The notes under the pieces: model-generated
The model's input: the letters and a program-made list of their open reading frames with translations, nothing else
Databases searched by the model: none
Told to the model about the DNA's origin: nothing
Source: Centruroides vittatus
Taxonomy: Eukaryota
DNA: 64,000 bases
Reading direction: 5' to 3'
NCBI RefSeq assembly: GCF_030686945.1
Contig: NW_027122668.1
Location: 188,099 to 252,098 of the forward strand
In this document: one piece after another, positions 9,827 to 62,323 of the stretch
How the letters are laid out: each line of letters starts with the position of its first letter
Position numbering within the stretch: the stretch's first letter is position 1
Program-made: the position numbers and the translations under genes

Positions 9827-10203
9827 ATGAGTGCATTAAAAGCGGACAGGAATTATAACGAAGAAAAAATCATCAAAACACATCCTGTAGATACTAAAGA
9901 TGCTTATTCAATTACAGTTCTGTTCTGTTTCAAGATAGATCATTTATCAAATTCTGTAAAAATTCTCATTTGTTCTTTCCTTCTTTTTGTATTTTTTATT
10001 ATCTATGGTTATTTGCAGGTGAGTGGAGTTATTAAATGGATTACTTTGATTAATGTCGTCTACATAAAGGCTTTGTTTCAGGAATTGATTTTTCAGTTAG
10101 AAGAATTTAAACCTTTTGGAATGTATCTAACTTTCATGCAATTTTTATTATATTCTTTTATATCTTTTCTAGAATGGTGTGTAAATAAAAATTGTCATAG
10201 AAG
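9827..10203 (+). CDS. Candidate 5' coding exon of a multi-pass membrane protein, possibly nucleotide-sugar transporter (SLC35B-like); ends at donor GTAAGC
   Basis: ATG at 9827 and an open 126-codon frame ending at 'ag|gtaagc' (donor at 10204). It contains two hydrophobic helices (ILICSFLLFVFFIIYGYL; LTFMQFLLYSFISFL). The motif 'EEFKPFGMYLTFMQFLLYSFISFLEW' resembles the 'KHPGCGNIVTFAQFLFIAVEGFLFE' region of SLC35B4-type transporters; this comes from memory only. No downstream exon was identified. Confidence 0.3.
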
Positions 10204-10243
10204 GTAAGCTTAAATGTTTTTTGAGTCAATTATTGGTTAATGT

Positions 10244-15246: not shown

Positions 15247-16216
15247 GTGATCAATATTGATGGCTTTACGATCCATTCTCTCCTTCGTCTTCCTATCGTT
15301 AGTACGAAATTTCGATCTCTAAATGAAGAAGCTGCACAGAGATTCCAGATTGAGATGAAGTCGCTCAAATTCATCATCATCGATGAAATGTCAATGATTG
15401 GTGCAAGAATGCTTTACATGATCGAGAGAAGATTGAGGGAGATAAACCCCAAGAAAGATGAGCCGTTTGGTGGATTCTTTATCTATTTGTTTGGTGATTT
15501 TCGTCAGCTTCCTCCTGTTAAAGATACTCCTCTCTACTCGAGTGTTTTTTACAATGTAATGTCCCAACAAGGTAGGGACCCTGTTGGGACATTACATTAC
15601 ATTTGCATTTGATTCTTTTGAGAAGTTCATTGAACTTAGTAATTCTCATAGACAAAATAGCACAGATAGTTCCTTCACAGATGTCTTACAACATCTAGCT
15701 TCGGGTGATTTCTCTGATACAGATCTGAACATTCTGACGACAAGAAATCGAGCCTGTTTATCCAGAGATGAACTTGATCAGTTCCAAACAGCAGTAGAGC
15801 TATATCCAACAAACGAGCAAGTTAAACAAAGCAACGAAAACTACTTGCAGTCAACTGGATGCTCTCTTGGTTATATAGCATCTGAAAACACTCCAGATAT
15901 TGCCCCGCCTTTGTCCAAAGATGACTCAGCTCTTGGTCTCTCTAAGTATTTGAATCTCTCAGTTAATGCCAGAATCGTGCTGAGAGTCAACTTATGGGTG
16001 CAAGGAGGTCTCGTCAATGGTTCACTGGAAACTAGACGCTACATTATATATGTTCCTAATGCTCGCCCTCCAGCTCTTCCTCTGTTTATTTTAGTGGAAT
16101 TCGATAGCTATCGGGGACCTTTAATCTATGGTAATCTGTTTCAAATAATTCCCATAACACCTCTTCGAATGATGGCAGTATATTGCGACCTTGTAGACAG
16201 TTTCCCCTTACCTTAG
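15247..16216 (+). pseudogene. PIF1-family (Helitron-type) DNA helicase domain fragment, frameshifted
   Basis: ORFs at 15247-15612 and 15584-16216 carry SF1/PIF1 motifs: 'FIIIDEMSMIG' (Walker B), 'FGGFFIYLFGDFRQLPPV' (motif III), 'IELSNSHRQ' (motif IV-like) and a C-terminal 'NARIVLRVNLWVQGGLVNGS' typical of PIF1/Helitron helicases. No Rep/HUH domain and no start codon are present. The frame is broken at ~15590. Confidence 0.7.
15562..15606. repeat. Perfect 20-bp-stem hairpin (aatgtaatgtcccaacaagg / ccctgttgggacattacatt) located exactly at the helicase frameshift
   Basis: 'caatgtaatgtcccaacaaggtagggaccctgttgggacattacatt' is palindromic with one mismatch. It lies between helicase motif III and motif IV, where the reading frame shifts. 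Confidence 0.6.
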
Positions 16217-23108: not shown

Positions 23109-26100
23109 CAGTGGTGGCGAACCTATGACCCGTGGGTCAGACACTGATCCATGCAGGTCTTTTAAATGACCCACACGTTGATTTTTATAAATTTATTTTT
23201 TATATCATAAAAGAGAGAACTGACAATCAAAAATATTTTAAAAAATAATGTACATATATCTAATGTCAAATTTTTTAAGGCCCAATGCAGGCATTGGGGC
23301 ATGCGCACGGTGTCATTCCATGGTATAAATAATAAATTCATAAATTAATAAATTCCTATTACAAATAAAAATAATAATATACTGAATTATACCATAAAAA
23401 TATAAAATAAATATAAAAGAATTTATATTGTTGATTTAGATAATAGCTAGGGGGGCCCCTAGTGGCTGTTTTTGGCATACCGTCACAGAACTGCCCGTTT
23501 CGATTTTATATAGCAGATATTTCCAAGTGGACATTGCCTAGCTGATTTTCTATTGTATCACTGCACCTGCATATGACACATGACAGTTAGTCATAAACTT
23601 GACGTGCGTACAGTACATGTTCGTTGCATTGTAGAATCGGGAGATGTACCAGTGCTGAACTAAATGGCAGTTTTGTCGTAGGCGTCTAGAAGTCTTTAAT
23701 AATTCAACATTATTATTATTTTTTATTATTAAAGTTTCTCGTCTACATATGTATGTATGTCAAGTACGTTAATAAGAAATTTCTTTTCAAATTATTGTAT
23801 TCTAAATATAAATATGTTTAGTCGTAGCCCTGTACTATGTCGGTGGTTAGAAAAATGAAAACAAACGATACAAGTTCCAGGCCATATCAAACAGAATGGT
23901 TTGATAAATATGGTGTGATTGAAAAGAATAAAATGACTTTGTGTATAATTTGTAACGAAAAAGTACGTACAATGTAAAAAGACATTTCGAAAAGTTGCAT
24001 TCTAATCTTGGCATTTCGACAGACGAAGAAAGAAGAACATATTTTTTACAAAAGAAAAAAGAGTCATTCACAAACCAGTGTTTTAAAAACTTTTTTGATT
24101 CCAAAAAACAACATTACGGCTGCTAGTTTTCAAGTTGCCCATTGCATTGCTCGCCACAGTGGAAACTCTTTCAGAAGGAGAGTTTGTAAAACAAGCATTT
24201 TTAGAATGAATTGCTACTTTGTTTGCAGATTTTAAAGAAAAGTATTGATTATAAAGCATATAAATGAGTTACCAATAAGTTGCAATACAATTAAAGATCG
24301 AGTAATAGAAATTAGAAATAAATATTTTTTCACACATATGTAATGACTTAAATTATACAGAAATGTATTTAATTGCTTTAGATGAGAGTAATGATGTAAA
24401 TGGTTATGCACAATTAGCAGATTTTGCTCGATATAAATCGGGCAATATAATGAAAGAAGAGCTAATGAAACTAATAACATTGAAAGGGAAGTGTATCGGT
24501 CTTGATATTTTTAAAGAATTTGATATTACATTTAAAGAAATGGATATTGACCTACGGAAAATTGTTTCTGTAACAACAGACGGTGCACCCAATATGGTGG
24601 GGAAAAACATTAGTTTTATTCAGTATCTTAAGCAAAATATTACACATTCTCTGATTGAATTTCATGTATAATACACCAGCAAGTTCTATGTGTGAAGCAA
24701 GGTTTAAAAACATTTTCCAATATAATGTCAGTTTTAATAAAAGTCATCAACTTTATAAATGCAAGAGGTCTTAATAAACGACAATTTGCACAATTACTAG
24801 AGGAAATTGAGTGCCAGTATTCGGGGATTTTGACACAACAATGTTCGATGGCTCAGTTGTGGTCAAGTTCTTAATCGGTTTGTCATTTTATTAGAAGAAA
24901 TTAAGCTCTTTTTGAATGAAGAAGACAATAGTTTTGATGAATTTTCAAATATAGATTGGTTAAACGATTTAATGTTCTTATGCGACATCACTCAGCATTT
25001 TAATGAACTGAATAAAAAACTTTGAAGAAATGGACAAATTATTTTAATGATGTTTGAAAATATTAAAATATTTATGAAGAAACTTGACATCTTTACTAAG
25101 GATTTGGAAATGAAAGTCATGAAATATTTTCTTCAATTACAAAAACATTTTCAGAACATAAAGATTTTTGAAAATAAGCTTGACATTCAAGAAAATGCAA
25201 TTAAAAAATATTTAATGATTATACAGGAAATAAAACAAGGTGTAGAGGAGAGATTTAATCAATTTAAAAGTTTGGAAAGTACATTTCACCTTATTTTATA
25301 TCCATACAAAATGGAATTCGAAACAGTGGAGTTTACTGAATTTATGTGGATAGGTATCCATGATTTAGAAATGGAATTAGTTGAATTTCAAAGCAGCATA
25401 GTGTGGAAAAATAAATTTGAAAACTTAATTATCAAAGTAGAAGGAAAAATGTCTGAAAATAGTGCAGATAATAATGATGCCACACAAAAAATTGAAAATA
25501 TTATATTAAACGTATGGGATTCTTTACCAAATAATTTTATATTAATGAAGAAATTTGCTAATGCTCTTTTAACAATGTTTGGGTCCACATATTCGTGTGA
25601 AAAATTGTTTTCTTTGATGAATTTTGTAAAATCTACCAATAGAAATAAACTTGGAAATGAAATGACTGTGAAATGAGTTAAACTAACGAATACGGAATAT
25701 GAACCTAATATTAAGAAACTATCTGAAAATAAACAACAGATTTCTCATTAAATATACTCAACTTTATTATACATACACATACCTGTAATTATATCTATTA
25801 ATAAATAATATTTCATAATACATATGTGATTTTCTTTATTCCTTGTTCATTCAAATACTTAGTGTGGGGATGATTGCCGACTGGGCGTGGTGTCACCTGG
25901 TGCGGTAATTCGTGGTATCACTCCATTGATATCAATTTTTTAACGTCGACCGTTATTTTTTGCTCTTCACTTGCAAAAGTAAAAGTTATAAAACAAAAAG
26001 GAAACGTAAACTTTTTGGAGGATTTTAAAAGCAAGAACCAAAAAAAAGTAGTTTTTAACCATCCTCTCCCCCTTTCCAAGTGACGCCAGTGACTTAGTGA

Positions 26101-33000: not shown

Positions 33001-35749
33001 CCTGCACTGCAGGTAAAAGATATTATTGAATTTGAAACATGAAGAATAGCATGTATACTAGCTCTAATACCTGACTGTAGAGGTGTGGACCATTCACAGT
33101 TTCAAACAACCAATCCTGTAAGGTACAAAAGCAAGGTTGTGAAGAAATGAAGATATAAAGAAACAAAGTCCAATACAGTCGTATGTTCATTGTTAAATAA
33201 CATAATGTAATGTAATCTCTTCACTAGCTTCCATGAGTCTTTTTAATAGAAAATTCTGTCTCTCTCTCTCCAATAAATGGTTCAGTGGTCTCTCTTTGTC
33301 TATTATAAATCTTGGTAGGGTGCCTAGTACGTTCATTTTCACAAAAACAAAAAGCCTGAATGTGTCTGGAGATTTAACCCACTGCTCTAAATGTAATGTT
33401 TTAGCTATCAAAATACATGCAAATGGAGTATTTAATTAAAAACAATTTTGTAATAGAACATACAAATACATTGATCTAATGACATTGTCACTCCTTACAC
33501 AGCAGCTATAATTCTACAGCTTCTCCAGTTCCTCCAAATTACTCATGTTATGCAATTACGAGTGATTCCTACTTTTAAATTGCAGAAGACAAAATTTCTT
33601 TTCTATGGCAATTTGCCATTTTCATTTACAAAACTTAAAGATAGTAGAAAACAAGATATTTGAAGGCAGATGAGAGATTAAACTCTGATGGTTACTCTAT
33701 CAATTGGTGTAAATTGCATACCTCTCAGATGATAATTAATATAATTACAATAAAATATAAAAAAACATTTGCACAATTGGAAGAAATGATAAATGTCTTC
33801 TTCTTTTGTCTTTTTCAATATCTCAAGAATGTTTATGGCAGAGTCAACCTTTTATTTGAGGTTACTCATCTGTCTCAATATTCAAAAATGTTAAAAATAT
33901 CATGACAACGGCACAACCATAAATGTATAGTATAAAATGTCAACTCCACTGTAAAATCTGTTGTTCCCGAGATGTTGAAAAGGACAAAATTTCAAGATAT
34001 TTGTCATTTCTTCCAATTTTGTGAATATATTTTTATATTTTATTATTCTCCTGGCCATTTACTTATTAGATAATTATAATAATTTGAAATGGTAACATTA
34101 CTAAATTATTTTTACAGATAAAATTATCTATCTTTTGCAACATACACATTTGTTCACAAACAAATGTGTATCAGTGCAGACATATCCATTCATAACACTC
34201 ACAATATGCAAAATACTTACCGTGAAAAATGTGTAACTAACTTATATAAAATGAGCAAAAATTATTGTAAAACCATCACAGCAATTTCTAATCTTATTTT
34301 TAATTTAAAATATATGCTACAGATTTTACCCCTGTGCATCATACCGTTCCTGACAACTACAGAGTCATGCCTGTCATCTATCTAACTCCGTTGTGGAGAA
34401 AATGTTTGAATTGATATCACGTAACGTCTTATTCATACTGGAAGTTCGTATATAGTTAATTAATTAATCGTATATAGTACTCAATTAACTATATAAGAAC
34501 TTCGAGACCAGACAAGGAAAGCTCAGGGGGCAGGAGGCCCTAAGCTTCCTTTGTCTGGTCTGAGCTTTCATCTGTTTGTTCCAAGATTAAAGAAGGATGG
34601 ACAAACAGATGCCAGTGCGAATTATAAGTCTGCAATTTGAAAATTGCAATCCAACTCGGTTAGCGTGCACAGAAAATGCACCTATGGTGCCTAGATTCTG
34701 CTCTTCCACATGTTCTACATACACAAGACGAAAGTCTAGTAATATTAGTCACACTATAGAAAGCGGTAACATTAAATATATGCCACTTTAAAACTTTTTA
34801 AACTTGTATACCCTTAAAGATACTTAATAATTATAGTAATTTGTTGTAGCTGTCTTCATAAATATTTTAATTTATTAACATTAAAAGATTATTTATCTTT
34901 AAAATTAATTAATACTATAAAATTATTATTTACAGGTAACAACGCTTGAGGATCAAAGAATATTAGAAGAAATAATAGCTAAACTAACTTATAAAAAAAT
35001 ATATAGAAAGTTATTCTTGGATATGATCATTTCAGAATTCCACATCGTCATTCTTCGCTCTATACTTCTGCAAAAATTCAGATCCATTCGAAATTTTAAT
35101 AGTCAGATTAATATATACATGGATCTAAGCAATATATACATATAAATATATATCTATACTAATCTTATATGTCTTAAAAATTATTTTAAATTCCTTTTTT
35201 TTGCTTTGTGGTATTTTTCTGAAAGATAATTACATTATTCTGACTCTTCATTAACTAACAGTGACATGCCGTGACATTTGATGATAGGGAAGCTGTGTTT
35301 CTGTAAGAAGCCGACTTCCAGGGGCAATCAGTTAGTTGCGTGTCAGTGATGGTCTAGGGTAGTGTTCCGCAAACTTTTTGTGTTCAAGGTACACCTACCA
35401 AATCAAGAAATTTTAGAGGTACACCAAAGGAAAAACCAATGTTTATTTAATATTTATTTATTATAAAAATCAGTACAATGTTTAATGAGAAATGTGAGCC
35501 TGCTTAACTGAGCACAGGCGATCAAAATTTGGAACAATCGTTGATAAGGCTGCTCTCATCTCTTGGTCGATCGTCCTCAAGCGTTCTCTTTTTCTTGATT
35601 TAATCGTAGTGAGAGTTGAAAACCCCAATTCGCATAAGTAGGTCGTTTAATAATAAAATTTTATGTAATCTCTTTTTTACATAAATTACATAAAATTTTC
35701 TCACCTCTCAGCTCGAGAATAACGTGTGGCACAGAATATCAGAGATGTG

Positions 35750-37015
35750 GTTAATGAGATACAAGATCTAATTTTAATGGACGATGAAGTTGAACTGTAA
35801 TGGACTACGAAAGCTTATACCCCTCTATAAAAATTGAATCATGCAAGGTAGCGCTTTTAGATTTCATGCACAGCAAGAGCCCAGATTTGGCAAATTACAA
35901 TAATGATTTGATAGAACTAGCTAACCTTATCTGCTATGAATATTTTTTTGCCTTTAATGGCCGTCAATACAAACAAAAAAGGGGATTCCCAATGGGAAAT
36001 CCCATGTCAGGATTGTTGTGTGAACTTGTATTGAGAAAGTTAGAAAAAAGTGTTCTTTGTGGATTCATGAATGACATGGTGTATTTTAAAAGATACTTAG
36101 ACGATGTCTTTGTAATATGGAAGAATGACCAAAAAATCGAGGAATTTATTAATAAGATCAACAACAACGATGACGGCCTCATGCTAAAGATTGAACAAGT
36201 GTTCCTCACGGATACATTTTTTAGACATTGACATTGAATTCAAGGAAGGACATTTGGTCACTAAGGTGTACGTAAAACCGACGCATAGCCCTCTGTACAT
36301 TCCGTCCCACTCGAATGATCCTTACCAATGGCTGCCTTCCGTGCCCTCGTTCAAAGGGCTTTTCTCTATTGCAGTAATGTGGTGGATAGGCAAAAAGAAA
36401 TCTACAGGATATCACATATCGCTAGAACTCTAGGGTACAGAGCGGATATGATAACAGCACTAATCAAAAACTACAAGATAAACAAAACAAAGGCTCAAAG
36501 CGGGGATTTCGGCAAAGTCACAAAGTTCACGTATGATAGAAAGAAAAAAGCTATCATGAAGGAAATCTCAGCCCGCAAAAAGTTCAAATTAGTTTTCAAG
36601 AGAGCTCCCAACCTGTACAAATTATTAAGGAACGACAAAGACAACATTGATAAAGAAAGAAGAGCTGGAGTATACAAAAAAAATAAATTGAAAACCAGGA
36701 ACTAGGCATTAATAGAAATTACATTGGTATCACTAATAGAAACTTAGGAGTCAGATTAAGAGAACACAAGTACAATATCGGCAAAAGGTCTGACGCCACA
36801 ATACTATCGCAGATGGCGCAGGTTGAGGGCTCAGTAGTCAAATGGAACGAAGCAAGTATTATTAAACCTGTACATTCACCGACGTTAGCGATTAGCGCCG
36901 AAAAAATTGAAATATTTAAGAGCAGATTGCATGATACCTGCATTAATGCTAGGGATGCTGAAGGGTTGCCTTCAGCCTGGAAATACTTAATTAAAAGATT
37001 AGAGAGCTCTTAATT
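35750..37015 (+). mobile_element. Penelope-like element (PLE), copy 1: 5'-truncated RT plus GIY-YIG endonuclease, degraded by frameshifts
   Basis: RT motifs 'YKQKRGFPMGNPMSGLLCELVL' and 'YLDDVFVIW'. GIY-YIG: 'AGVYKK...YIGITNRNLGVRLREHKYNIGK' and C-terminal 'SAWKYLIKRLESS'. The pieces are spread over ORFs 35800-36231, 36191-36433, 36328-36705 and 36813-37013. About 60% amino-acid identity to copy 2 at 45072-46175. Confidence 0.8.
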
Positions 37016-37082: not shown

Positions 37083-39784
37083 ATGAAGCATGCAATGCCA
37101 TAAGGTTGTAAATGCCATTTTTCTCAAAATACGTTTTATTGAAGAAATGAATTTTAAATGCAATGTTTTTTCCTACAAAAAAATATTGTGGTGATTGTGG
37201 CGCTCTAAGTGGCTATATTTCGAAGATGACGTTATGTGCAAGCCATAACGTTTTAAGCGTCAAAGTGCAAGCCACGTGACTTTTGGCACATAAAATGTTA
37301 CGGTTTACATTTACATCATTTTGTCATTCTAATTTGTAACGCAGTGAGTTTTTTATGAGTGAAATGAATTCCTTAAAGTATGAAATACCTAAAAGAAGAA
37401 AGAAATGTGCAGAAAAATGGAAGAAGAACATTCGAAAGAAACAAAAAAATAGTGGCTTAGAGTACATTTCTCCTATATCACAGAAAGTTAATCCGAGAAA
37501 GGATCCACCAACAGGGGTAAGTAAAAGACTTAATACTTCAAAAATATAGACGTAGATTTGAGATTTGCAAGATATGGATAGTCATTGTGTCTATGCATGG
37601 GTGAACAACTTGTATATGACTGTTTCCAACAAGTTTGTCAAACTTTTTGTTTACGTTACAGGTGACTTGCAAGTGTTCCTTCGCTTGCAAAAACGTAATG
37701 TTGGCTTACCATCAGGAACTCTTCCAACAATTTTATGAACTGGCTGACTACAATAAGCAACAGAGTTATCTTCAAAGACTTGTTCATCCCCAGATGATAA
37801 AAAGGAGATGATATGGGAAGTACCACCATCCTTCTGGAAGTAGAAGGCAACACTCTTTCAGTTATCATTTGCTTCTTCCCAGTGGAAGTGAAATAAGAGT
37901 TTGCCTTAAGACTTTGTGTAATACATTCGGGGTTACTGCAAGAAGAATTCAGTTGATTGGAGAAAAGATTTTGGAAGGAAAAATGGATGCTACTGATCAA
38001 AGAGGAGGCCAGCGAAAATGTACTGAAAAGCAGTTGTGGACGGAAAAAATAATTGAACACATTAAGAGTTTTCCAAGTGAAGAAAGTCATTATGCTCGAG
38101 CCAAAAGTACAGGTAAAATGTACTTATCACCTGATCTCAATGTTAGCAGAATGTACAGAGCCTTCCTTGAGAAATATTGTCAACAGTATGCTAGGAGCAA
38201 AGCCCCAGTTACTCGACAATGGTACAATGAAATTTTCCTAACCAAATTCAATCTATCTTTTCAAAGACCTCGCATGGACACTTGCTCAACTTGTGACCGC
38301 CTTGATGTACGAATAAAAGCTGGTGATGCATCAGCAAAAACAGAACTGGAATTACATCATTACAGAGCTGAAGTAACCACAAAAGACATGTCTGATGACA
38401 CAAAAAATGCTAAAACCTCAGATTCGTATGTTATATCTTTTGACTTGCAGCAGCAAATGTATATACCACAATTAACACACACTGAAATGTATTATGCTCA
38501 ACAATTGGCATGCTACAACCTTGGAATTCACGATTCAATTAAAGAGAAAGGATGCATGTGTTTGTGGAGTGAGAATTTTGGAGGAAGAGGGTCTTTGGAA
38601 ATATCATCCTGTATATACCATTATATTACTACTGAGGCTGCTAGTGGTGACCGAAAGAAGCTGACTTTGTGAACAGACAATTGTGTTGGTCAAAACAAAA
38701 ATCAATACGTGATAGCCATGTATCTGGTGTTATTGGCCAATAATGTATTTTCAGAAATAACACATAAATACCCTGTAAAGGGTCACACATTTCTCAGCTG
38801 TGATCGAGACTTTGCTCTAATTGAAAAACGGAGGAAAAAATGCAAAGCTTACACACTAAAGGATCTTGTGGACATCATTAAAAGTGCAGGGACCAAAAAC
38901 CCTTTTACCTGCATCGTATTTGAGAAATTTCATGACTTTAAATCGATTCCCCATGCATTTTTGAATACAAAAGACCTGGGAATCTCAACAGCATCCCAAA
39001 TTAGACTCTCATCAAATAACTTTGGTAAAGTTATGATTGCTAAAGGTGGAGGTAAAGCAGCAAGGTGGTGCACTGGGCTTAATGTGCTGAAAAATGGAGT
39101 TAGCATTGATGATTTCAAAAATCTTCCACTTCCTCTTGCTCACTCCCATTTTGGGATTCCTCAAAAGAAGAAACCTGACATTGGTAAAATGATACCATTT
39201 TTAAATCCAATAGCACAAACCTATTTCAAGGAGATGCTAGCAGAACCGGATAACTAAATGCCAGTTTATTAATAGTTAACCTGTCACTTTATTATTTGAT
39301 ATTTCAAAATGATATTTGGACTTCCATTAATCTTTCAAATTTGAAGTTTTTAAATACGTTTTAACTTTTATTACACTAAATTAAAACCTTATTGATAAAG
39401 ATTACAGCCCAGTTCAAGTCACTAATAGATTATTGTCAGTTTTTAATGTTAAAATTGATATTGAATTTGTAAATTGTGTTTAATAATTTAAATGTAAGTT
39501 TTTGGTATTCAAGACTGTTTTTCAGCTGTAGAAACATTAATTTTATGACTGCAATCGTTTTTGGCATTTACAACGTTATGGCTCTAACCCTGTTTTTAAA
39601 CTTTTTTTGTTTCCTTACTATCATTCTTCTTAGGTGTTTGAAATTAAACCCAATGTTTTATTCCAAACTGTAAATTGTTAAAATAGCATTTGATTAAAGT
39701 TTGTTCATTAGAAAAAGTGTTTTTTCTCTCTCCTGAAAAATTTGTTTTTTGGCATTTACAACCTTATGGCATTGCACGCTTCAT
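37083..39784 (+). mobile_element. Complete TIR-bounded DNA transposon (~2.7 kb) of unassigned superfamily; ~34-bp TIR ATGAAGC(A/G)TGCAATGCCATAAGGTTGTAAATGCCA
   Basis: 37083-37117 'atgaagcatgcaatgccataaggttgtaaatgcca' matches the rc of 39751-39784 'tggcatttacaaccttatggcattgcacgcttcat'. A subterminal partial copy lies at 39553-39590. The element encloses a single transposase-like gene. The flanks are AT-rich and the TSD is unresolved (TA or TAT possible). Confidence 0.6.
37355..39257 (+). pseudogene. Transposase-like gene of the 37083-39784 element: exon 1 37355-37516, GT-AG intron 37517-37661, exon 2 from 37662; inactivated by one frameshift (~37810-37870) and one in-frame TGA (38673-38675); ~600 aa when repaired
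   Basis: Canonical intron 'gtaagt...ttacag'. Basic N-terminus (KRRKKCAEKWKKNIRKKQK), a Cys cluster 'CKCSFACKN', then a conserved-looking core with acidic candidate catalytic motifs 'VISFDLQQQMYIP', 'TDNCVGQNKNQYV' and 'LSCDRDFALIEKRRKK' in RNase-H/DDE-like spacing. I cannot assign it to a named superfamily from memory. Confidence 0.5.
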
Positions 39785-42452
39785 TATAGTGTCTTAATAT
39801 TTATTTATTTAACCTATACATGTCACAATTTATATACATATTTTGATATTTATAATTATTTTTATTTTATTGTATTTTTATACATGTATATTTCATTTGT
39901 ATTTAAATTTTTTGTTCCATTTTGTTTGCATTCGAATATGTTTAACCTGATGATGGCCAATGGGTTTGGCTGAAAACGTTTGTTACGTTTTTTATTAAAT
40001 TTTCTCAGCAACTTAAGTTGTTTTAGTCTTTTCTGATCTAACTATCGGTGTTCGGTCTTTTATCAATTCGGCTAATGAAGGACATTTAAGAAAGTATCGT
40101 TTGGAAATGAAAAAATCCATGGCAAGTGTTATATGCTACCTGTCACAGTAATTAAGTGAATGTAATATACATTTTTTTTGTAAGAATTATGTTTAGTTTA
40201 TGATTTTGTTAAATTTTTTGCCAATAGATGGTGCTACATGTAAATTAGCAAGTGGAATGTAGATAGAAATTAATTGATTTACAGAAATTCAATAGATATT
40301 TTGGGCTGGGATGTACGACATTATCTAAGATAGAAGTATGCAAATGTAACTGCCAAGTTTCGTTGCAATTGGTCGAACGGCGTAGGAGTGTATAGCGGAC
40401 AAACAAACAACAAACATCCTAATGCCTTTGGTTATTGTTACCAAGAACAAGAGTTTTCAAGTGGTACAAGATGTTTAAATGTAGTTTGTCATTGAAAGAC
40501 AGAGAACGCGTCGATGAACCACGTTCTGGTAGGTCATCTGTGAGGTGTGAAGCGCGATAGGAATACACAGACACGTGAATTCAATTAAAACGAATTTAAT
40601 TTCGCGATAAACAATATATACAGATGAGTTCTTTTGGATTCCCTCGGTCCAATTTCTCTTACTGTCCGATAGTAACAAAAACCCTGTAAAGTACTATTTT
40701 AGTTTACAACGATTATCGACTCTACCGTGTCGGAAACAACCGTTAACCTACCGGGTACTTTACTCGGATTCGCGTTAGCGTGCCAGGCCTGGACTTTAAG
40801 CGTGCACCGAATTAAATAAAGACAATATTTGTCAATAGAAAAAAACCAAAGATTTAATTAGTCGTTTAGCAATAACTATGTACAAGATTTAGTAAAAATC
40901 AAACAATAATTTATTCTAAGAAATTCAACAAAGTCAACCCGACAATTCTCAATTCAAATCTATATCTAACTTAACTATTCCCCTTGGGAATCCGACAAAA
41001 CCAAAAGCTTAACTTATAACAATAATTCTTATAAACTAGAGATCCTAATCGTCACCTCAATATACTCGGAACCTATTTCCTCAAACTCTCAAGACTTTCT
41101 CAGACTGTCGATCCAAATTCGAATCACTTCAAATCACCTTGGAACTATTCGAGATCCTATCGGACACCTCTCTATTACTGCTGCAAAGCTCACCAAGCTC
41201 GTTGCTATCAGAATTCACCTCTCCGTCTTCACTTGAGACTCGGGATTTATAGTGTGAGGTGACGTCACAATTCTGAATGCGGTCACTCCCCTCATTTACA
41301 TACTTAAATGCTAACAATAACGTTTTTCATCGTCTGGCAGCCCTTTTTCCGACAGTTTACTCACTAACCTTTTACATTATTTGTTTTTACAATTCTTTCC
41401 GGGACGTTTTTATTACTTAAGGTTTAGCGAGTTTTATTTCGTGCTTGTAGGTTCTCCCCCCCCTCTTCTCGGTGCGGACCTATTCTTTGCCGCTCGGGGA
41501 GCGAAACTGTGCGTGAGTCTTATGGCGCTTTTCTTTCGTCGGTGAGTTGGGTTTTATTTCTTCTCTTTTTAAATACTGAAGGTGAATGGTGAGGAAACCT
41601 TCGTCCTAACAAAACATAAGCCCCAAACAAAAATAGAATAATAAGCAAAATAAAAGTAAAATAAAAATAACGCTCGGACTTGGTTCCTTACAACCCAAGT
41701 AGCTTACCTTCTTGGAAACTACTTGCCCGACAATACTAATGAAATCCGCGCGATCCTTAACTAACTTAAACCTAAGGATAGAAAAGTATAGAGATGGGAA
41801 GTGAGAAGAATTGATAGGATAGTGGGGTACCCTTGTTCTCGCTGAACTCCGATGCCGGCTGGTGCTTTATTCTGCGTGTCTCTGGGTTCGTCAATGTTTT
41901 AAATCTCTTCTACTATAATTTCTTTTCGGTGTCTCTGATTCTACAGTCCGGATCCTCACCTCACGGCTTTCTATTCGGCCCTCATGGAATTCCGTCTCAC
42001 GAGCTCGCTGTTTCGTCCGTGCTTCCTCGTGTCCGGCTGGAGAAAAAGTGACCCTTCGTGACCCAGATTTGACTCGTCCACAACTCGAAGTCTTTGTCTC
42101 ACACGGCCCCCTGGTGGGTGGGGAGTGGAAAGCCCCTGTTCCCAGAAGCCAGAACAATGAACAAAGGAAGTTAGAAAGAAGGGTTAAGAAAGAGAGAAAA
42201 TTATTAAAACTAATTAAATCTATAATACATATGTACAAAATATATGGCGTACAGCCACACATCCACTTCAACTGATGAGCAACACGTCGCTCGATTCAGA
42301 GATATGATGCTCGACGATGATCGTCGTTAACAATTAAAAATATTAAACACGTTTCGGTCTCATTTGGATTTTGTCGAGCAATTGTAAAAAATCATTCGGG
42401 CATGCAACTCGTCGCTTCTCGAGTCGTCCCGAAAACATTGAATTTTTTCCAA

Positions 42453-43103
42453 AATTAACTATATAAGAACTTCCGATGCAAACCGGAAGTTACGGTTTTT
42501 AATTCGAAACTCCACCTGCCGAAAGCAGTTAATAGATGACCTATTAACACGACTCTATTGTTAAAGAGAAAGTATGATGTACAGAGGCAAGCCACTACTA
42601 ATTTGAGGTGGAAAGCACATGTTTTAAATTAAATGATTTAAAACTATGATTAAAATTTGCATCCCCGGCATTGTGACGGCTTCACAATAAACAATTGCTC
42701 GTAGCTGTAGTTTGTGTGTGAAAACTTTGGTTTCAACTCGTGAAAATATTTACAATGACAAACTACATTTTGTCGTGTTATGAACCACAATATTGAAATT
42801 AAAATCCTTTTAAGAGGTAATAAAAAGTTAATAATTGTGGGAAATGGAAGAAGCGTTGCATTTTTCCATCAAAAATAAACAGAGAAGTGCAAGAGACTGA
42901 TATGCAGAAACTACGCCATTAAGATGTGCACTATATCCATCATTGTGGATAACACAGTATATTAAGGCGAACTAACATTTTGTTCGTTATGTTGGAGACA
43001 CTGAAGCCGTAAGCCCGAATGGGGATTAGAAAATTACCAATCAAAAATGCATTCTTAAATAGGCGAAATAAAGAGAACTGTTTTAATCTCGGTCTCTGCT
43101 AGT
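42453..43103 (+). repeat. Unclassified non-autonomous repeat 'X' (~650 bp), copy 1; starts AATTAACTATATAAGAACTTCCGATGC
   Basis: The same ~650-bp sequence recurs at 59297-59651 plus 61114-61404, where it is split by an insertion, at ~93% identity. No TIRs. The internal palindrome 'cttccgatgcaaaccggaagtt' is read directly. Confidence 0.55.
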
Positions 43104-44340: not shown

Positions 44341-45050
44341 TAATACACAAACACCTAATTACTTGCTGAGCTTGCTGATTTCTTTATTCTCTAACGTTTT
44401 CAACCTAATTTTTATAGGTCATCTTCAGGAAAAAATTTATTACATTTCCAAATTCGAATATAAAGCTTTCGAATGCTCGCGACACTTAAAACTTTTCGAA
44501 TCTTTACAAATTTTAACGGTTTAAATAATAACGGATTAAACATTAAACCAACTACAAACACATTAAAATCATTACTAATCAACAAACAAAATAAATAAAT
44601 AAATAAATAAATAAATATTGTATCAAAAGTAGATTAAACTAGTTAATGCTGCCATGTCCTTTCTACGGGTTTTTTAATCCCATTTCTTTTTCTATTATGT
44701 ATTTCCATGCCGTTGGAAGATTATTTGCGTCTTTTGCATTTAAACATTTGTTTTCCACCTTACTCTTATATATTTCTACTTTTTCCATCCCTAACGCAAT
44801 CGTAGGTGAATGGACTGCCTTTACTATTCTCGCTTCATCCCATTTTACGTTCGCTCCTTCCTCTTGTCCCATGATCGCCAAAATGGTGTTATTGTGCCCT
44901 TTTTTTACATCATATTTGTGTTCTTTTATACGTGTTGCCAAATTACGTCTAGTTACTCCAATATATTCTTTTGTTACCGCTAATTGCTCGTTCTCAAATG
45001 GAATCTTATAAACCCCCGCCTTATCCTGCATTCTCATTGCGTCCTTATCA
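44341..45050 (-). mobile_element. Inverted partial copy (GIY-YIG endonuclease region plus 3' UTR) of the adjacent Penelope-like element
   Basis: 44341-45050 is the reverse complement of 45787-46500. The ORF at 44663-45037 (-) is identical to the C-terminal 124 aa of the 45072-46175 ORF. Confidence 0.8.
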
Positions 45051-46500
45051 TGTTGAGGAATCTGTATATGCTTGGGATCTTTTATAAATCATTTTTGTGG
45101 ATTTGATGGGGTGACATACAAGCAAAAGAAAGGTGTCCCGATGGGAAGTCCCATGTCGGGACTCCTATGCGAGTTAGTAGTACGTCAACTAGAAAAAGAT
45201 ATCCTAAGATCATTTGAGGAGTACATTGTAATGTACAAAAGATATGTGGATGACGTATTGATAATTTGGAAAGATGAACGAAAGATTGGAGATTTTTTAA
45301 TTGCTATGAATGACAATCCGCATGGGTTACAGCTAAAAATGGAACAAAAAAGCCGTACGCAGCTCCATTTTCTGGACATAAATATAAAATTTAGAAGGGG
45401 AGATATACAAACTTCAGTATATTTAAAACCAACGCTTGCGCCCCTATATATACCGGCGTGGTCTAATGATCCGTTCAAATATAAGATGGCAGCGTTTAAA
45501 GCGCTTATTAAAAGGGCGTACGTATATTGCACAGATGTACGAGATCAAATTAAGGAGATTGACAGAATTAAAAAAGTGGCAAAACAGTTGGGTTATAAAG
45601 AGAACGTAATAGGAGGGTTAATTAAGAGTTACAAACAGCATAGACACAGAGGATTTAATAGAGAGGATCGGATCAGCAAGTTCACGTACGACAGAAAAAT
45701 GGAAGGAGTGATAGAAGAGTTATGTAGATATAAAGGCACAAAAATGATTTATAAAAGAGCACCAAGCATATACAGATTACTTAGAAATGATAAGGACGCA
45801 ATGAGAATGCAGGATAAGGCGGGGGTTTATAAGATTCCATTTGAGAACGAGCAATTAGCGGTAACAAAAGAATATATTGGAGTAACTAGACGTAATTTGG
45901 CAACACGTATAAAAGAACACAAATATGATGTAAAAAAAGGGCACAATAACACCATTTTGGCGATCATGGGACAAGAGGAAGGAGCGAACGTAAAATGGGA
46001 TGAAGCGAGAATAGTAAAGGCAGTCCATTCACCTACGATTGCGTTAGGGATGGAAAAAGTAGAAATATATAAGAGTAAGGTGGAAAACAAATGTTTAAAT
46101 GCAAAAGACGCAAATAATCTTCCAACGGCATGGAAATACATAATAGAAAAAGAAATGGGATTAAAAAACCCGTAGAAAGGACATGGCAGCATTAACTAGT
46201 TTAATCTACTTTTGATACAATATTTATTTATTTATTTATTTATTTATTTTGTTTGTTGATTAGTAATGATTTTAATGTGTTTGTAGTTGGTTTAATGTTT
46301 AATCCGTTATTATTTAAACCGTTAAAATTTGTAAAGATTCGAAAAGTTTTAAGTGTCGCGAGCATTCGAAAGCTTTATATTCGAATTTGGAAATGTAATA
46401 AATTTTTTCCTGAAGATGACCTATAAAAATTAGGTTGAAAACGTTAGAGAATAAAGAAATCAGCAAGCTCAGCAAGTAATTAGGTGTTTGTGTATTATTA
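45051..46500 (+). mobile_element. Penelope-like element, copy 2 (5'-truncated, 3' end intact) with a 3' UTR containing (AAATA)n-like repeats
   Basis: It contains the intact ORF at 45072-46175. The 3' region at 46200-46500 is mirrored upstream. It is flanked on the right by the 49-bp direct repeat. Confidence 0.85.
45072..46175 (+). CDS. Intact 367-aa PLE ORF: C-terminal part of the reverse transcriptase (motifs B to C, 'YVDDVLIIW') fused to the GIY-YIG endonuclease ('GVYKIPFENEQLAVTKEYIGVTRRNLATRIKEHK')
   Basis: Uninterrupted frame. 'KKGVPMGSPMSGLLCELV' and 'YVDD' are RT motifs. The GIY-YIG motifs match the Penelope endonuclease. It lacks RT motifs 1-3, so it is 5'-truncated and probably non-functional on its own. 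Confidence 0.7.
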   Translation: MGSFINHFCGFDGVTYKQKKGVPMGSPMSGLLCELVVRQLEKDILRSFEEYIVMYKRYVDDVLIIWKDERKIGDFLIAMNDNPHGLQLKMEQKSRTQLHFLDINIKFRRGDIQTSVYLKPTLAPLYIPAWSNDPFKYKMAAFKALIKRAYVYCTDVRDQIKEIDRIKKVAKQLGYKENVIGGLIKSYKQHRHRGFNREDRISKFTYDRKMEGVIEELCRYKGTKMIYKRAPSIYRLLRNDKDAMRMQDKAGVYKIPFENEQLAVTKEYIGVTRRNLATRIKEHKYDVKKGHNNTILAIMGQEEGANVKWDEARIVKAVHSPTIALGMEKVEIYKSKVENKCLNAKDANNLPTAWKYIIEKEMGLKNP

Positions 46501-50424: not shown

Positions 50425-52955
50425 ATGAATTATCATCACGCTTCGGGTTCTGAGAAAAGAAAGTACATGAAGAAGTTGGAGGAAGAAGCAAATAAACAGA
50501 AACGCTCTGCTAAAATATGTTATTCATACAAAAGTAGACAATATCAATGTGGAAGTTGAGCCTGAAGAAAAGGACGTTGGTGAATATTCTGGAAACAGTG
50601 AAAATCAAGAAGTACAAATAGAGAAGACAGAAAACAATGAAAATATAATTGAAGTAGTTGAAATGAAAAATATAGAAGACAAAAACATACCAGAGGTTGA
50701 GAAGAAAAACGAAAATGCAATTAATGAAGTAGAAATACAAAATGTAGAAGGTAGATCCAACATCGTTAATGATATTTTAATTTTTGACAATTTGGACATT
50801 TCATTATGGCCTTTAAATTTAACAACAGACACGCAACATTATTTGCTTAAAAATAAACCATCGTCAAATATTTCTCTTGTACACACCGCTAAAAAAGTAG
50901 TGACAGAAGGTGGGAAAACTGTAACTCGGACATTAAAGAAAAATATTTTTACTCGTAACAAGGCAAACGGTGAAAAAATTGAGCGAGAATGGTTAGTGTA
51001 TAGCCCAAGAAGTAAAGCAATGAACTGCTATGTTTGCAAGATATTTGCGATCAGAAGAACCGCTTTTACAGAAGGCTACTCGGACTGGAAAAATGTAAAT
51101 GTAAGAGTAAAAAAACATGAACGTTCTACTGACCATAGGCATTCTATTGAAATTTTGATAGTAAGAAATTCAGTTGAGCGACGTGTAGATACTATAGTTG
51201 AAAAAAGTATTTAGAAAAAAAAATACTGGAGAAAAGTACTGCTGCGGGTAGTAGCAACAATAAAATTTTTAGCTAAAAATTCTCTTGCATTTCGTGGCTC
51301 TAATGAACTCTTTTCTGAATGTCAAAGCGGGAATTACATTGGAACTCTTGAATATTTGGTAGAATTTGATGAGTTTTTAGCATCGCATATAAAACAATAT
51401 GGATCAGCTGGAAAAGGCAACGTGAGTTATCTTTCTTCGACTATTTGTGATGAATTTATTGAAATATTGAACAAGAAAATGTTAGAAACATTTGTGTCAG
51501 AAGTTAAAGCTGCCAAATATTTTTCTATAATAATTGACTCTACTCCTGATATGACACATGTAGACCAATTAACTTTTATATTGCGCTATTTATCAGAAGA
51601 TGGAACCCCAATCGAGAGATTTTTTGGATTTATTCCCATTTATTCTCACTCGGGGGGAATCATCAGAAAATGAACTTTTACAGAATATTGCAAAATTAGG
51701 ACTTGATATTAGCAATTGTAAAGGACAAAGCTACGATAATGCAGCAAATATGTCCGGCAAATACAATGGGCTCCAAAACCGCATTAAAAGACATAGTGAA
51801 ACAGCCCATTACGTTCCTTGTGCTTCGCATTCATTAAATCTAGTAATAAATAGTGCTAGTGAATCATGCTTGCAGGCAATAACATATTTTAATTTACTGG
51901 AAATCATTTATACCTTTTTTTCGGCTTCTACGTATAGGTGGAACATTTTAGAAAAAACTTTTGCCGCAAATAATAAACATTTTACAGTAAAAAAGTTATG
52001 TACTACGAGATGGTCTTGTAGAGCTGATGCAGTTAAAGCAATTCGCGCTGGGTTCGACCAAATAGAAAGTGCTCTTCTTGAAATATCTTTAGACGAATCT
52101 CAGAAATGTTCTGTTAAAGAAGAATCACGAAAAATAGCAAACAAAATGAATACTTTAGAATTAATTTTGTTAACAGTTATTTGGGATAAAATTCTTTCCA
52201 GAATGAATGCGAGCATTTTGCAGTAAATATTTTTGACAATTTATATCATTACGTTAATAGTTTAAGAAGTTCATTTCTGGAAATAGAAGCAGAGGCATTA
52301 AGCACGTCAGAAATAAAAGTGTATTGTGATTTTAAAAAAAGGTCCCAAAAAAGAAAACGTTTCTTTGATGATGCTTATAATGATGAGGGAAATGTAAGTT
52401 TTTGTCAGAGCCAAGAAATGTTTAAGCGAAATTGTTTCTACGTAATTTGTGATAAAATATCTCTTCAATTAAAAGTTAGAAGCAAAAGTTACAAAGATAT
52501 TGATGAAAATTTTTAAAACTCTTCGTACAAACATAGCTGCCGACGAAGACGTATCAATTAATACCGCATTGCTAAAAAAATGGTACAGTGGCGACATTGA
52601 TACTGAAGAATTGGACGAGGAATTGTTGCAATTTAAATTAATTTGCAAAAGCCAAAATTTAACGTTGCCATCTGATATGCTGCAATTTATAAAGAGCACA
52701 AAAATAGTATCAACATTTCCAAATACAGAGATATTATTACGAATGTATTTAACTTTGCCTATATCAAATGCATCTGGTGAAAGGTCATTCTCAGTATTAA
52801 AACGTGTAAAAAATTATTTACTAAACTCACTGAATGCATCAAAATTAAATTCGTTAGCTGTTTTATACATCGAACAAAATGCTTTGGATAATATTAATTA
52901 TGATGAAATAATTGATAATTTTGCTGAATTAAAGACTAGAAAACAGAATTTTTAA
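50425..52955 (+). pseudogene. hAT transposase of the ZMYM1-like type (TTF-type zinc finger plus DUF4371-like core plus hATC), with about four frame disruptions; no identifiable TIRs of its own
   Basis: N-terminal 'SGSEKRKYMKKLEEEANKQKRS'; TTF zinc finger 'CYVCKIFAIRRTAFTEGYSDWKNVNVRVKKHERSTDH'; 'RVVATIKFLAKNSLAFRGSNE'; 'YFSIIIDSTPDMTHVDQLTFILRY'; 'CKGQSYDNAANMSGKYNGLQ' and 'HYVPCASHSLNLV' (hAT DDE motifs); hATC 'SNASGERSFSVLKRVKNYLLNSL'. The pieces lie in the ORFs at 50549-51214, 51356-51673, 51600-52226 and 52500-52955. Confidence 0.8.
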
Positions 52956-58522: not shown

Positions 58523-58775
58523 CGGCCGGATGGCCGAGCGGTCAAGGTGGCAGCCTACCGCTCTGGGGAACCCGGGTTCGAATCCCGACGGGTCGAAAAA
58601 TCCCCAGGAATTTTTCGGGGGGTGGTCCGTCCGGATATGTCGGGCCCCGTCCCTCACCACCCGGTCGCCCCATTGTGGGCCTGGCCGAACCCATAATGGC
58701 TTGCATAAAGAGGCCCTCTTAGTGCCCACAGGGCGGAAAGAGTTAAAAAATATATATATATATATATATATTAAA
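58523..58775 (+). mobile_element. tRNA-derived SINE (~250 bp) with Pol III A box (TGGCCGAGCGG) and B box (GGTTCGAATCC), GC-rich body and an A/(AT)n tail
   Basis: The head 'cggccggatggccgagcggtcaaggtggcagcctaccgctctggggaacccgggttcgaatcccgacgggtcg' is tRNA-like but does not fold into a complete tRNA by eye. The same ~250-bp unit recurs at 62071-62323 at ~85% identity. Confidence 0.7.
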
Positions 58776-59296
58776 AATACCGAAAAACCTTTATAATGAA
58801 CGAAAATGAAGTCCGAGACAACGGGGAAACCGACACGGAGGAAAACAGACTGAGTTGGGGAGAAGCCACCATTCTTTCTCCCTGAATTTCTGGCTTTTTA
58901 AAGGATCTATCCCCTAAATTCTTAATTTAGAGGACACTTCCGCTCGACTTGGTCCGCAAGTGTTGATCCAACTTTGAAACTTTCGCTCGCCATGATATTT
59001 TATTTTTTGGCGGCTAATAATTTTTTTTTTTTTTTTTTGCCTTCATTACTTACAGCGCGACAATTTTGCTTTCGAAGGAATCTACATTTATTTCCAAATT
59101 TTGTCATGTCTACGAGAGTCAGAGTCAGCTGTTTCCCATCGGCATTGCAATCCGTTAGTTCGCGTCGACCCGTGACCTCGGGGACTGCAATTGGAAAAAA
59201 TTGTATACCTGTAAATTCCCACTGTCTGTCTTAATCTCGAGAACGGAGTTAGATGAAATCCGAGACCAGATATGGAAATTTTAGGAACGGGAGGTC

Positions 59297-59651
59297 CAAT
59301 TAACTATATAAGAACTTCCGATGCAAACCGGAAGTTACGGTTTTTAATTCGAAACTCCACCTCCCGAAAGCAGTTAATAGATGACCTATTAACACGAATC
59401 CATTGTTAAAGAGAAAGTATGATGTACAGGGGCAAGCCACTACTAATTTGAGTTGGAAAGCACATGTTTTAAATTAAATGATTTAAAAGTATGATTAAAA
59501 TTTGCATCCCCGGCATTGTGACGGCGTCACAATAAACAATTGCTTGTAGTTGTCTGTGGAAACTTTGGTTTCAACTTGTGAAAATATTTACAATGACAAA
59601 CTACATTTTGTCGTGTTATGAACCACAATATTGAAGTTAAAATCCTTCTAA
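59297..59651 (+). repeat. Repeat X, copy 2, 5' part (interrupted by element Y)
   Basis: Collinear with 42453-42815 of copy 1. Confidence 0.55.
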
Positions 59652-61113
59652 CAAGGAGACCCTACGGCTTTGGGGAAACGGATTTTGATGATCTTCGGTG
59701 TGGAGGTAGTACACCGTGTGAGTGTACTACCTGTAAAATACTAAAGTGCAATACTCAAATGTAATCGAGAAAAATGAACTTAAAGTTTTCTTTAGCACTT
59801 TATGTATAAGTTACGCGTACTATGGCTCGAGCGTACTGTGGCGTGAGTGGTAACGCTCCTGACTCGTGCGCTGGCGTGCTCGGGTTCAATTCTCTTGTGT
59901 ATAATTTTTTTTTATTCATAAATACTTATAATGTATTTATTATTTATTTATTTTAATTTAATTTCTACTGTTCCAAGCCTAATATTTTTTTCTGAAAAAC
60001 TCACCTTTTTCAAGTTGAGAGAGAACTATTAATACTTATGCCGGGTTTGAACATGGGTCTACAGTCTTTCTCACTCACTCTAACTCTTTGTTGACCAATT
60101 TCCACGCCCCCTTGTTTACTTTTAGTTTGTAAAACGACCGAAGGCACTACTCCATGTTTTAGCCGCTGCTTCGATACATCACTGTATAAAGAGTGATCAT
60201 CAACAGTTTTTTCGTCACAACGTGAGGAACTTGCTTCTCTTGATGACATTTTTGTAATTATAAAATAACTTTTCAAAATAAATTTCACTGAACAAATACG
60301 TCTATTCGAGTCGAAATTCAGAAACGAACGTTATATAGAGTTTTACAAAACAATATTTCACGTCTTTCTAGCGTAGTAGTGCCAAAAAATAACTAGACAA
60401 TGTTAATTTTGACAAAAAGTTACAAATAATGAAGTTTAAATGTCAGTTCAGATATATATATATATATTCTTATTAATTTCTCTAACAAAATATATTGAAA
60501 AATATCGTATTTAAACTAAAGATATTAATAAATGTACGCGATTTTCTTTCATACGAATATAATGATAATTTGATTTTTGGTGAATTTTTTAAAATAATAT
60601 TCCTGACTGACCAGTATTGCCCTCGGTTGTTTTACAAACTAAAAGTAAACAAGGGGGCGTGGAAATTGGTCAACAAAGAGTTAGAGTGAGTGAGAAAGAC
60701 TCTAGACCCATGTTCAAACCCGGCATAAGTATTAATAGTTCTCTCTCAACTTGAAAAAGGTGAGTTTTTCAGAAAAAAATATTAGGCTTGGAACAGTAGA
60801 AATTAAATTAAAATAAATAAATAATAAATACATTATAAGTATTTATGAATAAAAAAAAAATTATACACAAGAGAATTGAACCCGAGCACGCCAGCGCACG
60901 AGTCAGGAGCGTTACCACTCACGCTACAGTACGCTCGAGCCATAGTACGCGTAACTTATACATAAAGTGCTAAAGAAAACTTTAAGTTCATTTTTCTCGA
61001 TTACATTTGAGTATTGCACTTTAGTATTTTACAGGTAGTACACTCACACGGTGTACTACCTCCACACCAAAGATCATCAAAATCCGTTTCCCCAAAGCCG
61101 TAGGGTCTCCTTG
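59652..61113. mobile_element. Foldback-type non-autonomous element 'Y' (1,462 bp) with ~500-bp terminal inverted repeats (CAAGGAGACCCTACGGCTTTGGGGAAACGG...) and an AT-rich centre including (AT)n; inserted into repeat X
   Basis: 59652-60160 is the rc of 60620-61113. Relative to the uninterrupted copy 1 of X ('aatccttTTAAgagg'), the insertion lies at a TTAA, now flanked by the degraded copies 'ctaa' and 'ttag'. The arms contain tRNA-like A-box and B-box sequences ('tggcgtgagtgg', 'gggttcaattc'). Confidence 0.7.
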
Positions 61114-61404
61114 TTAGAGGATTAATAACTTCAATATTGTGGGAAACTGGAAGAAGCGTTGCATTTTCCCATCAAAAATAAACAGAGAAGTGCAAGAGAC
61201 TGATATGTAGAAACTACACCATTAAGATGTGCACTATATCCATCATAGTGGATAACACAAGTATATTAAGGCGAACTAACATTTTGTTCGTTATGTTGGA
61301 GACACTGAAGCCGTAAGCCCGAATGGGGATTAGAAAATTACCAATCAAAAATGCATTCTTAAATAGGCGAAATAAAGAGAACTGTTTTAATCTCGGTCTC
61401 CGCT
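61114..61404 (+). repeat. Repeat X, copy 2, 3' part
   Basis: Collinear with 42816-43103 of copy 1. Confidence 0.55.
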
Positions 61405-62070: not shown

Positions 62071-62323
62071 CAGACAGGGGCTGACTAGTGAATGGCTGAG
62101 CATCAAAGTAGCAGCCTATCTCTCTGAAGGACCCGGGTTCGAATCCGGACGGGTCGATAAATCTCCAGGAATTTTTCGGGGAGTGATCCGTCTGGATATG
62201 TTCGTGTCCCGTTCCTCATCACCCGACCACCCCATTGTGGTCCTGGCCGAACTCATGGTCTTGCTGAAAGAGGCCCTCATAATGCCCACAGGACGGAAAG
62301 GGTTTTTAATTTAAAAAAAAAAA
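62071..62323 (+). mobile_element. tRNA-derived SINE, full copy with A-rich tail
   Basis: Head '...gaatggctgagcatcaaagtagcagcctatctctctgaaggacccgggttcgaatccggacgggtcg', then the body, then 'ggacggaaagggtttttaatttaaaaaaaaaaa'. Confidence 0.65.

Follow-up and report, generated by a model that had tools for sequence, protein, structure and literature searches.

A long palindromic insert nested in one of two copies of a repeat in the scorpion Centruroides vittatus

Repeats of the window and the two copies of X

The stretch analysed here, referred to as the window, comprises 64,000 nucleotides of the Centruroides vittatus genome (assembly GCF_030686945.1, contig NW_027122668.1, positions 188,099 to 252,098) and is dense in transposon remains. 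Penelope-like elements, with matches of the RVT_1 and HTH_animal types, are found at 44646-46192 and 35800-36705. The 3' end of the former is duplicated in inverted orientation, with identical 121-aa open reading frames at 44646-45011 (+) and 45827-46192 (-), and the best matches of this element's reverse-transcriptase frame (45072-46175) are in C. vittatus itself (98%) and in C. sculpturatus (70%). PIF1-type (Helitron-like) helicase fragments, two hAT-like elements and a DUF7869 protein occupy 15247-16216, 25047-25676, 50549-52955 and 37869-39257, the domains of the hAT-like elements being Dimer_Tnp_hAT, DUF4371 and zf-C17orf113. A frame at 9827-10207 shows a weak match to the N-terminus of a UAA transporter (SLC35-like) and is possibly a host exon; a spliced guess at its protein had no homologue, and a protein search for an orthologous locus by way of this exon gave no candidate. 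A tRNA-derived SINE-like repeat is present at 58524-58744 and 62092-62304, in copies that are 83% identical and flank the locus described below. The first of these has a tRNA-Gly(acc) head according to ARAGORN and scores 23 bits against the Rfam tRNA model, below the gathering threshold.

Within this setting, two copies of a repeat, here called X, are found in direct orientation, one of them uninterrupted (X1) and the other (X2) split by an extra 1462 bp, here called Y (Table 1). According to BLAST, X1 42453-42813 and X2 59298-59651 are 94.5% identical, and X1 42805-43100 and X2 61108-61404 are 94.6% identical; outside the centre of X, identity amounts to 94.9% in the left part and 96.6% in the right part. 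The distribution of X in a related species was assessed on eight loci of C. sculpturatus, amounting to 268 kb of non-N sequence. In these loci, the first ~250-262 bp of X are matched by BLAST at 72-86% identity, in no fewer than three long copies and in a number of fragments, and the remaining ~400 bp, which is seen only in X1 and X2, gave no match. The C. sculpturatus copies run ~115 bp further upstream, and this extension is homologous to window positions 59182-59297. Since these 115 bp belong to the same repeat, X as originally drawn is not a complete element, and the true start of X2 lies near 59182, not at 59298. The unit shared between the two species is a repeat of ~370 bp, frequent in C. 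sculpturatus, which runs from GGGCTGCAATT... to ...AATTGCTYGT and has short imperfect inverted ends. X2 holds a whole copy of this repeat (59182-59547), followed by the ~400 bp found only in X1 and X2, and Y is positioned ~100 bp past the 3' end of the unit.

Table 1. Features of the X2/Y locus and its uninterrupted counterpart, in window coordinates
Feature	Position	Strand	Basis or remark
X1, uninterrupted copy of X	42453..43103	+	pairwise comparison
Module U, the upstream part of the ~370-bp Centruroides repeat, adjoining X2	59182..59297	+	C. sculpturatus copies
X2, interrupted copy of X, left part	59298..59651	+	matches X1
XL module of the ~370-bp repeat, within X2 left part	59298-59547	+	C. 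sculpturatus copies
Start of the stretch common to X1 and X2 only	59548-59651	+	comparison
Mirrored left flank of Y	59623..59651	+	27/29 identity to X1 42785-42813; ends in CTAA
Y, left arm	59652..60151	+	inverted-repeat comparison; terminus CAAGGAGACCCTACGG...
A-box-like TGGCGTGAGTGG	59839-59850	+	motif
B-box-like GGGTTCAATTC	59882-59892	+	motif; 32 nt downstream of the A-like box
T9 run	59905-59913	+	12 nt after the B-like box; T10 in the other arm
Y, loop	60152..60612	.	unique sequence; 461 nt, GC 0.27, has an (AT)8 run
Y, right arm	60613..61113	-	inverted-repeat comparison
Mirror copy of the A/B-like box segment	60851-60926	-	right arm
Mirror of left flank, right side of Y	61114..61142	-	27/30; replaces X1 42814-42840; starts with TTAG
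X2, right part	61143..61404	+	96.6% identity to X1 42843-43100

Upstream of X1, only a weak and strongly diverged counterpart of module U is found, at 42372-42452 (GCAATTGTAAAAAAT versus GCAATTGGAAAAAAT). The identity of X1 and X2 is ~60-65% upstream of the TTAA at 42455 and 95% downstream of it, which indicates that both are mosaic. The treatment of X as a single repeat, in an earlier note made from the sequence of the window, had to be abandoned, because the first ~250 bp and the 115 bp upstream belong to the separate ~370-bp repeat; X is either a longer, lineage-specific variant of that repeat or a duplicated segment. A third copy of the ~370-bp repeat is found on the minus strand at 34320-34680 and is ~70-75% diverged. 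It carries a ~70-bp insert at an internal TTAA, at the point where the region of high identity between X1 and X2 begins. The insert is composed of two back-to-back hairpins made of inverted copies of the flank (34438-34466/34478-34506 and 34505-34528/34538-34561), and looks like a footprint of hairpin-mediated repair.

Anatomy and junctions of Y

The insert is a near-perfect palindrome, with two inverted arms of 500 nt (98.6% identical) enclosing a unique loop. The arms differ from each other at only 4 positions in their outer 484 nt and at 3 in the innermost 16, and their GC content is 0.37, versus 0.27 in the loop. The predicted fold of single-stranded Y is one long hairpin of -635 kcal/mol, and this anatomy is far beyond chance. 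The ends of Y read CAAGGAGACCC...GGGTCTCCTTG (terminal sequence CAAGGAGACCCTACGGCTTTGG), and the 22-nt terminus, found in inverted orientation at these two ends, has no other occurrence in the window with up to 3 mismatches allowed. The ~500-bp inverted arms and AT-rich loop described in the earlier note are thus borne out, and the nesting of a palindromic insert in one of two copies of X is real, with homology to X resuming on both sides. An assembly fold-back artefact was ruled out on inspection, given the asymmetric, unique loop of 461 nt and the correct resumption of X beyond the insert.

Y has no coding capacity. No Pfam domain was found in any of its frames (E<=1-10), and the longest frame of the loop, on the minus strand, spans 92-106 aa. 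The longest open reading frame of Y had no homologue among 5.8 billion proteins in a word-indexed search and 0 matches in a full HMMER search of 1.84 billion representatives. A remnant of a THAP protein or transposase in the loop frame, for which a 'VVPSV' motif had been taken as a hint, was rejected for want of a Pfam match at E<=10. No transposase able to recognise the termini of Y is visible in the window, and none of its helicase, hAT-like and DUF7869 elements has such termini. Searches for further copies were likewise negative. There is no second copy of Y in the 64-kb window, and the 268 kb of C. sculpturatus yielded just AT-rich low-complexity matches, with the neighbouring SINE-like repeat, which served as positive control, found three times at full length in the same loci, with identities of up to 91% (for instance, L004 28486-28705). 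No exact match to sequences of 20-24 nt from the terminus of Y, its box region or its inner arm turned up in metagenome and viral contig collections, and an exact-sequence look-up of Y and of the window's open reading frames in a contig index returned no record.

The uninterrupted copy provides a candidate empty site. In X1 the sequence reads CCTT-TTAA-GAGG, with the TTAA at 42810-42813, and the junctions in X2 read CCTT-CTAA-[Y]-TTAG-AGG. The inverted repeat does not stop at these junctions. It extends 29 bp past Y on each side (59623-61142) and is without mismatch over the outermost 17 bp (CCACAATATTGAAGTTA). The right flank (61114-61142) agrees with the reverse-complemented left flank at 27 of 30 positions and with its X1 counterpart at only ~22 of 30, so that, relative to X1, X2 has ~28 bp replaced by Y together with a mirror image of the left flank. 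The three differences between the mirrored flanks all fall in the 12 bp next to Y, as compared with only 4 in 484 nt of the arms. The mirror ends exactly at a 7-bp inverted pair that is also present in X1, where positions 42785-42840 form a weak 56-bp palindrome in which only CCACAAT/ATTGTGG pairs robustly and whose centre is not a significant hairpin (fold z -1.07). Because the right 29 bp mirror the left flank rather than match X1, the boundaries of Y and its TSD are ambiguous, and the earlier claim that the comparison with X1 defines the insertion precisely, at 59652-61113, is not sustained.

The target sequence is subject to the same ambiguity. However the boundaries are drawn, no intact TTAA duplication results, and TA/TA, obtained when Y is read 1 bp shifted as ACAAGG...CCTTGT, is the sole exact direct repeat at the junctions; under this reading the right junction is short of one A relative to X1. 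A TWA reading, corresponding to the 3-bp duplication of PIF/Harbinger elements, places TAA before Y and TTA after it, which is an inverted pair and not a direct repeat. Each of the TTAA, TA and TWA models requires at least one additional 1-bp indel to account for the right junction. X1, 651 bp long, has 16 TTAA (1 per 41 bp; ~11.7 per kb across the window) and 55 TA. With TTAA this common, finding it at the X1 site is weak evidence for a target, and there is roughly a one-in-ten chance that it lies at the breakpoint by coincidence. Of the TTAA target previously proposed for Y, what stands is the TTAA of X1 at the point of discontinuity; against it, Y is flanked by CTAA and TTAG, a single site is available and TA fits equally well.

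Origin of Y

The best explanation for these observations, in which we place about even confidence, is that Y is a non-autonomous cut-and-paste element with long TIRs, that it entered X2 after the divergence of the two copies of X, at or directly beside a TTAA or TA, and that its right junction was later remodelled. In favour of an insertion are the discrete presence and absence of Y in copies that are otherwise 95-97% identical, the homology that resumes on both sides and the location of the X1 TTAA exactly at the discontinuity. In this model, a transposase encoded elsewhere would recognise the CAAGGAGACCC... termini, and Y would have inserted into X2 at or beside the TTAA/TA that X1 keeps at 42810-42813. 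A later break near the right end of Y would then have been repaired with the left arm as template; repair synthesis would have continued past the arm through 29 bp of the left flank and joined up again at the ATTGTGG that is in any case present on that side of X. The three differences in the mirrored 29 bp, far above the rate seen in the arms, are awkward for a single recent repair of this kind. The arms are ~99% identical, versus ~95-97% for X1 and X2, so that Y, or at least the last homogenisation of its arms, is younger than the duplication of X. Furthermore, the absence of Y from 268 kb of C. sculpturatus in which the neighbouring SINE-like repeat and the 5' part of X recur fits a young or lineage-specific family. 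Y is best read as a young, presumably mobile element, either low-copy or lineage-specific, nested in an older repeat and seen in a single copy. The earlier suggestion of a non-autonomous TTAA-specific element survives in part: Y is most readily understood as a non-autonomous DNA transposon, but neither the termini of piggyBac or Kolobok nor a TTAA duplication was found.

The continuity of the inverted repeat from the arms into the flanks, with its perfect outer 17 bp, admits a reversed polarity, of the kind that the earlier note had named as a refutation, in which the unit would be the 1520 bp at 59623-61142, with CCACAATATTGAAGTTA as its termini, and would represent the ancestral state, X1 being a collapsed derivative with a 56-bp remnant at 42785-42840. 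Such a history would account for the outer ends CCACAAT...ATTGTGG that X1 keeps around its TTAA and for the GAA that both copies of X have on either side, and it avoids the coincidence of an insertion at the centre of a pre-existing palindrome. Within the 29-bp flanks, however, the 12 bp by Y carry 3 differences between the two sides, and this fall in identity coincides exactly with the onset of homology to X1, so that 59651/59652 is a real boundary. Moreover, the two halves of the presumed remnant behave differently, the left matching X2 at 27 of 29 positions and the right being only ~70-75% like the right flank of X2, and the centre of X1, as noted above, forms no significant hairpin (z -1.07). 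A collapse from an ancestral 1520-bp unit is accordingly regarded as unlikely.

The single copy of Y and its mirrored host flank could also be the outcome of a one-off rearrangement, in which foreign or filler DNA consisting of one arm and the loop would have been taken up where X2 was broken, to be duplicated afterwards in inverted orientation by snap-back synthesis that also took in 29 bp of the left flank. The two back-to-back inverted flank duplications at the internal TTAA of the 34320-34680 repeat copy indicate that hairpin-type repair products do occur in this genome. On the other hand, a rearrangement of this type requires two events, capture followed by fold-back, and leaves the source of the arm and loop sequence unexplained, and the arms end in sharp, identical termini at the very point where homology to X1 stops; an origin by rearrangement alone appears quite unlikely. 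A combined scenario, which seems to us very unlikely, would refer the mirrored flank of Y and the double hairpin at 34.4 kb to one recurrent process, in which TTAA breaks, left for example by the excision of TTAA-specific elements, would be sealed via hairpin intermediates that copy tens of flanking bases in inverted orientation. Y would then have grown outward by capturing flank, and its arms would carry a relic Pol III unit.

The motifs behind this last suggestion had led to the proposal that Y might be a SINE-derived or tRNA-promoter-bearing foldback, with arms of tRNA origin and working Pol III A and B boxes. A perfect 4-bp stem (GCGT/ACGC), in the position of a D-stem, encloses the A-like box, the B-like box follows at tRNA-like spacing and the T-run lies 12 nt further downstream (T9-T10). 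With a loosened A+B pattern, the window gives matches in the true tRNA-derived SINE at 58531 and in both arms of Y and nowhere else, and 200 shuffles give 0, but this pattern was fitted after the sequence had been seen, and the strict A and B box consensus is unmatched in the Y segment. The Rfam tRNA covariance model gave nothing at E<=10, either in 3.1 kb or in a 121-nt slice, and ARAGORN made no call in Y at its default or 90% threshold. At 80%, a tRNA-Thr(cgt) call at 59829-59907 was discarded as noise, since the window yields 31 such calls and shuffled sequence a mean of 26. The fold of the box region, which the earlier note had put forward as the check for a tRNA-like structure, is not a cloverleaf (z -1.27), and the segment can be aligned only loosely to the head of the window's SINE. 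It sits 170 nt inside the arm, pointing inward to its own terminator, so that transcription starting from it would not yield the element. The quoted box-like motifs are present, and no tRNA-like structure was found. At the level of motifs only, 59839-59913 resembles a Pol III type-2 unit and may be a decayed relic of tRNA type, and it is very doubtful that Y is a foldback with a functional tRNA promoter.

Affinities of Y and its significance

If Y is indeed a non-autonomous DNA transposon, its features overlap with those of several known groups. Elements of the piggyBac type have 5'-CCC...GGG-3' termini and TIRs of a few tens of nucleotides. Y resembles their non-autonomous derivatives in being non-coding, in having inverted termini and in the TTAA of the X1 empty site, but it differs from them in its CTAA/TTAG flanks devoid of an exact TTAA duplication, in its CAAGG...CCTTG termini and in its 500-nt TIRs, and no piggyBac transposase frame (DDE_Tnp_1_7) is found in the window. 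Kolobok elements and their MITEs, which are known in arthropods, combine a TTAA TSD with 5'-RR...YY-3' termini (PMC9587614). A TTAA target would be common to Y and this superfamily, but under the TTAA reading Y ends in 5'-CA...TG-3' and has no detected THAP or transposase remnant. Non-autonomous elements derived from Tc1/mariner (Stowaway-like) have a TA TSD (PMC5199201), and Y is flanked by TA/TA if read as ACAAGG...CCTTGT, although the dinucleotide is uninformative in so TA-rich a sequence. Usage of the term MITE implies a length below 800 bp and many copies (PMC5199201); Y is likewise non-coding with inverted ends, but at 1462 bp, with far longer TIRs and one copy in 64 kb, it falls outside this usage.

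In overall foldback anatomy, Y agrees with Drosophila Foldback (FB) and Galileo-type elements, in which very long inverted arms surround a short unique middle (PMC4079207, PMC4168063). The arms of Drosophila FB, however, are made of tandem sub-repeats and the element has a 9-bp TSD, whereas the arms of Y are free of sub-repeats (TRF reports short AT-rich microsatellites only) and no TSD of 7-9 bp, as in FB or Galileo, is found at either candidate boundary. With tRNA-derived SINEs, lastly, Y shares A- and B-box-like motifs followed by a T-run, but its segment is internal to an inverted arm instead of forming a 5' end, and lacks both the tRNA model match and the cloverleaf. The best reading is that Y functions in the manner of a non-autonomous DNA transposon with long TIRs, and it agrees in full with none of the families compared here.

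The nested structure is real but ordinary for a transposon-rich scorpion genome, the mirrored flank being its only mildly unusual point, and Y opens no larger question. Its value is practical and lies in the repeat annotation of Centruroides genomes, where Y would represent an unnamed, probably young, long-TIR non-autonomous family; X proves to be composite, and the ~370-bp repeat that underlies it is abundant and shared with C. sculpturatus. Near-perfect palindromes of this length could, in addition, give rise to hairpin RNA and to genome instability.
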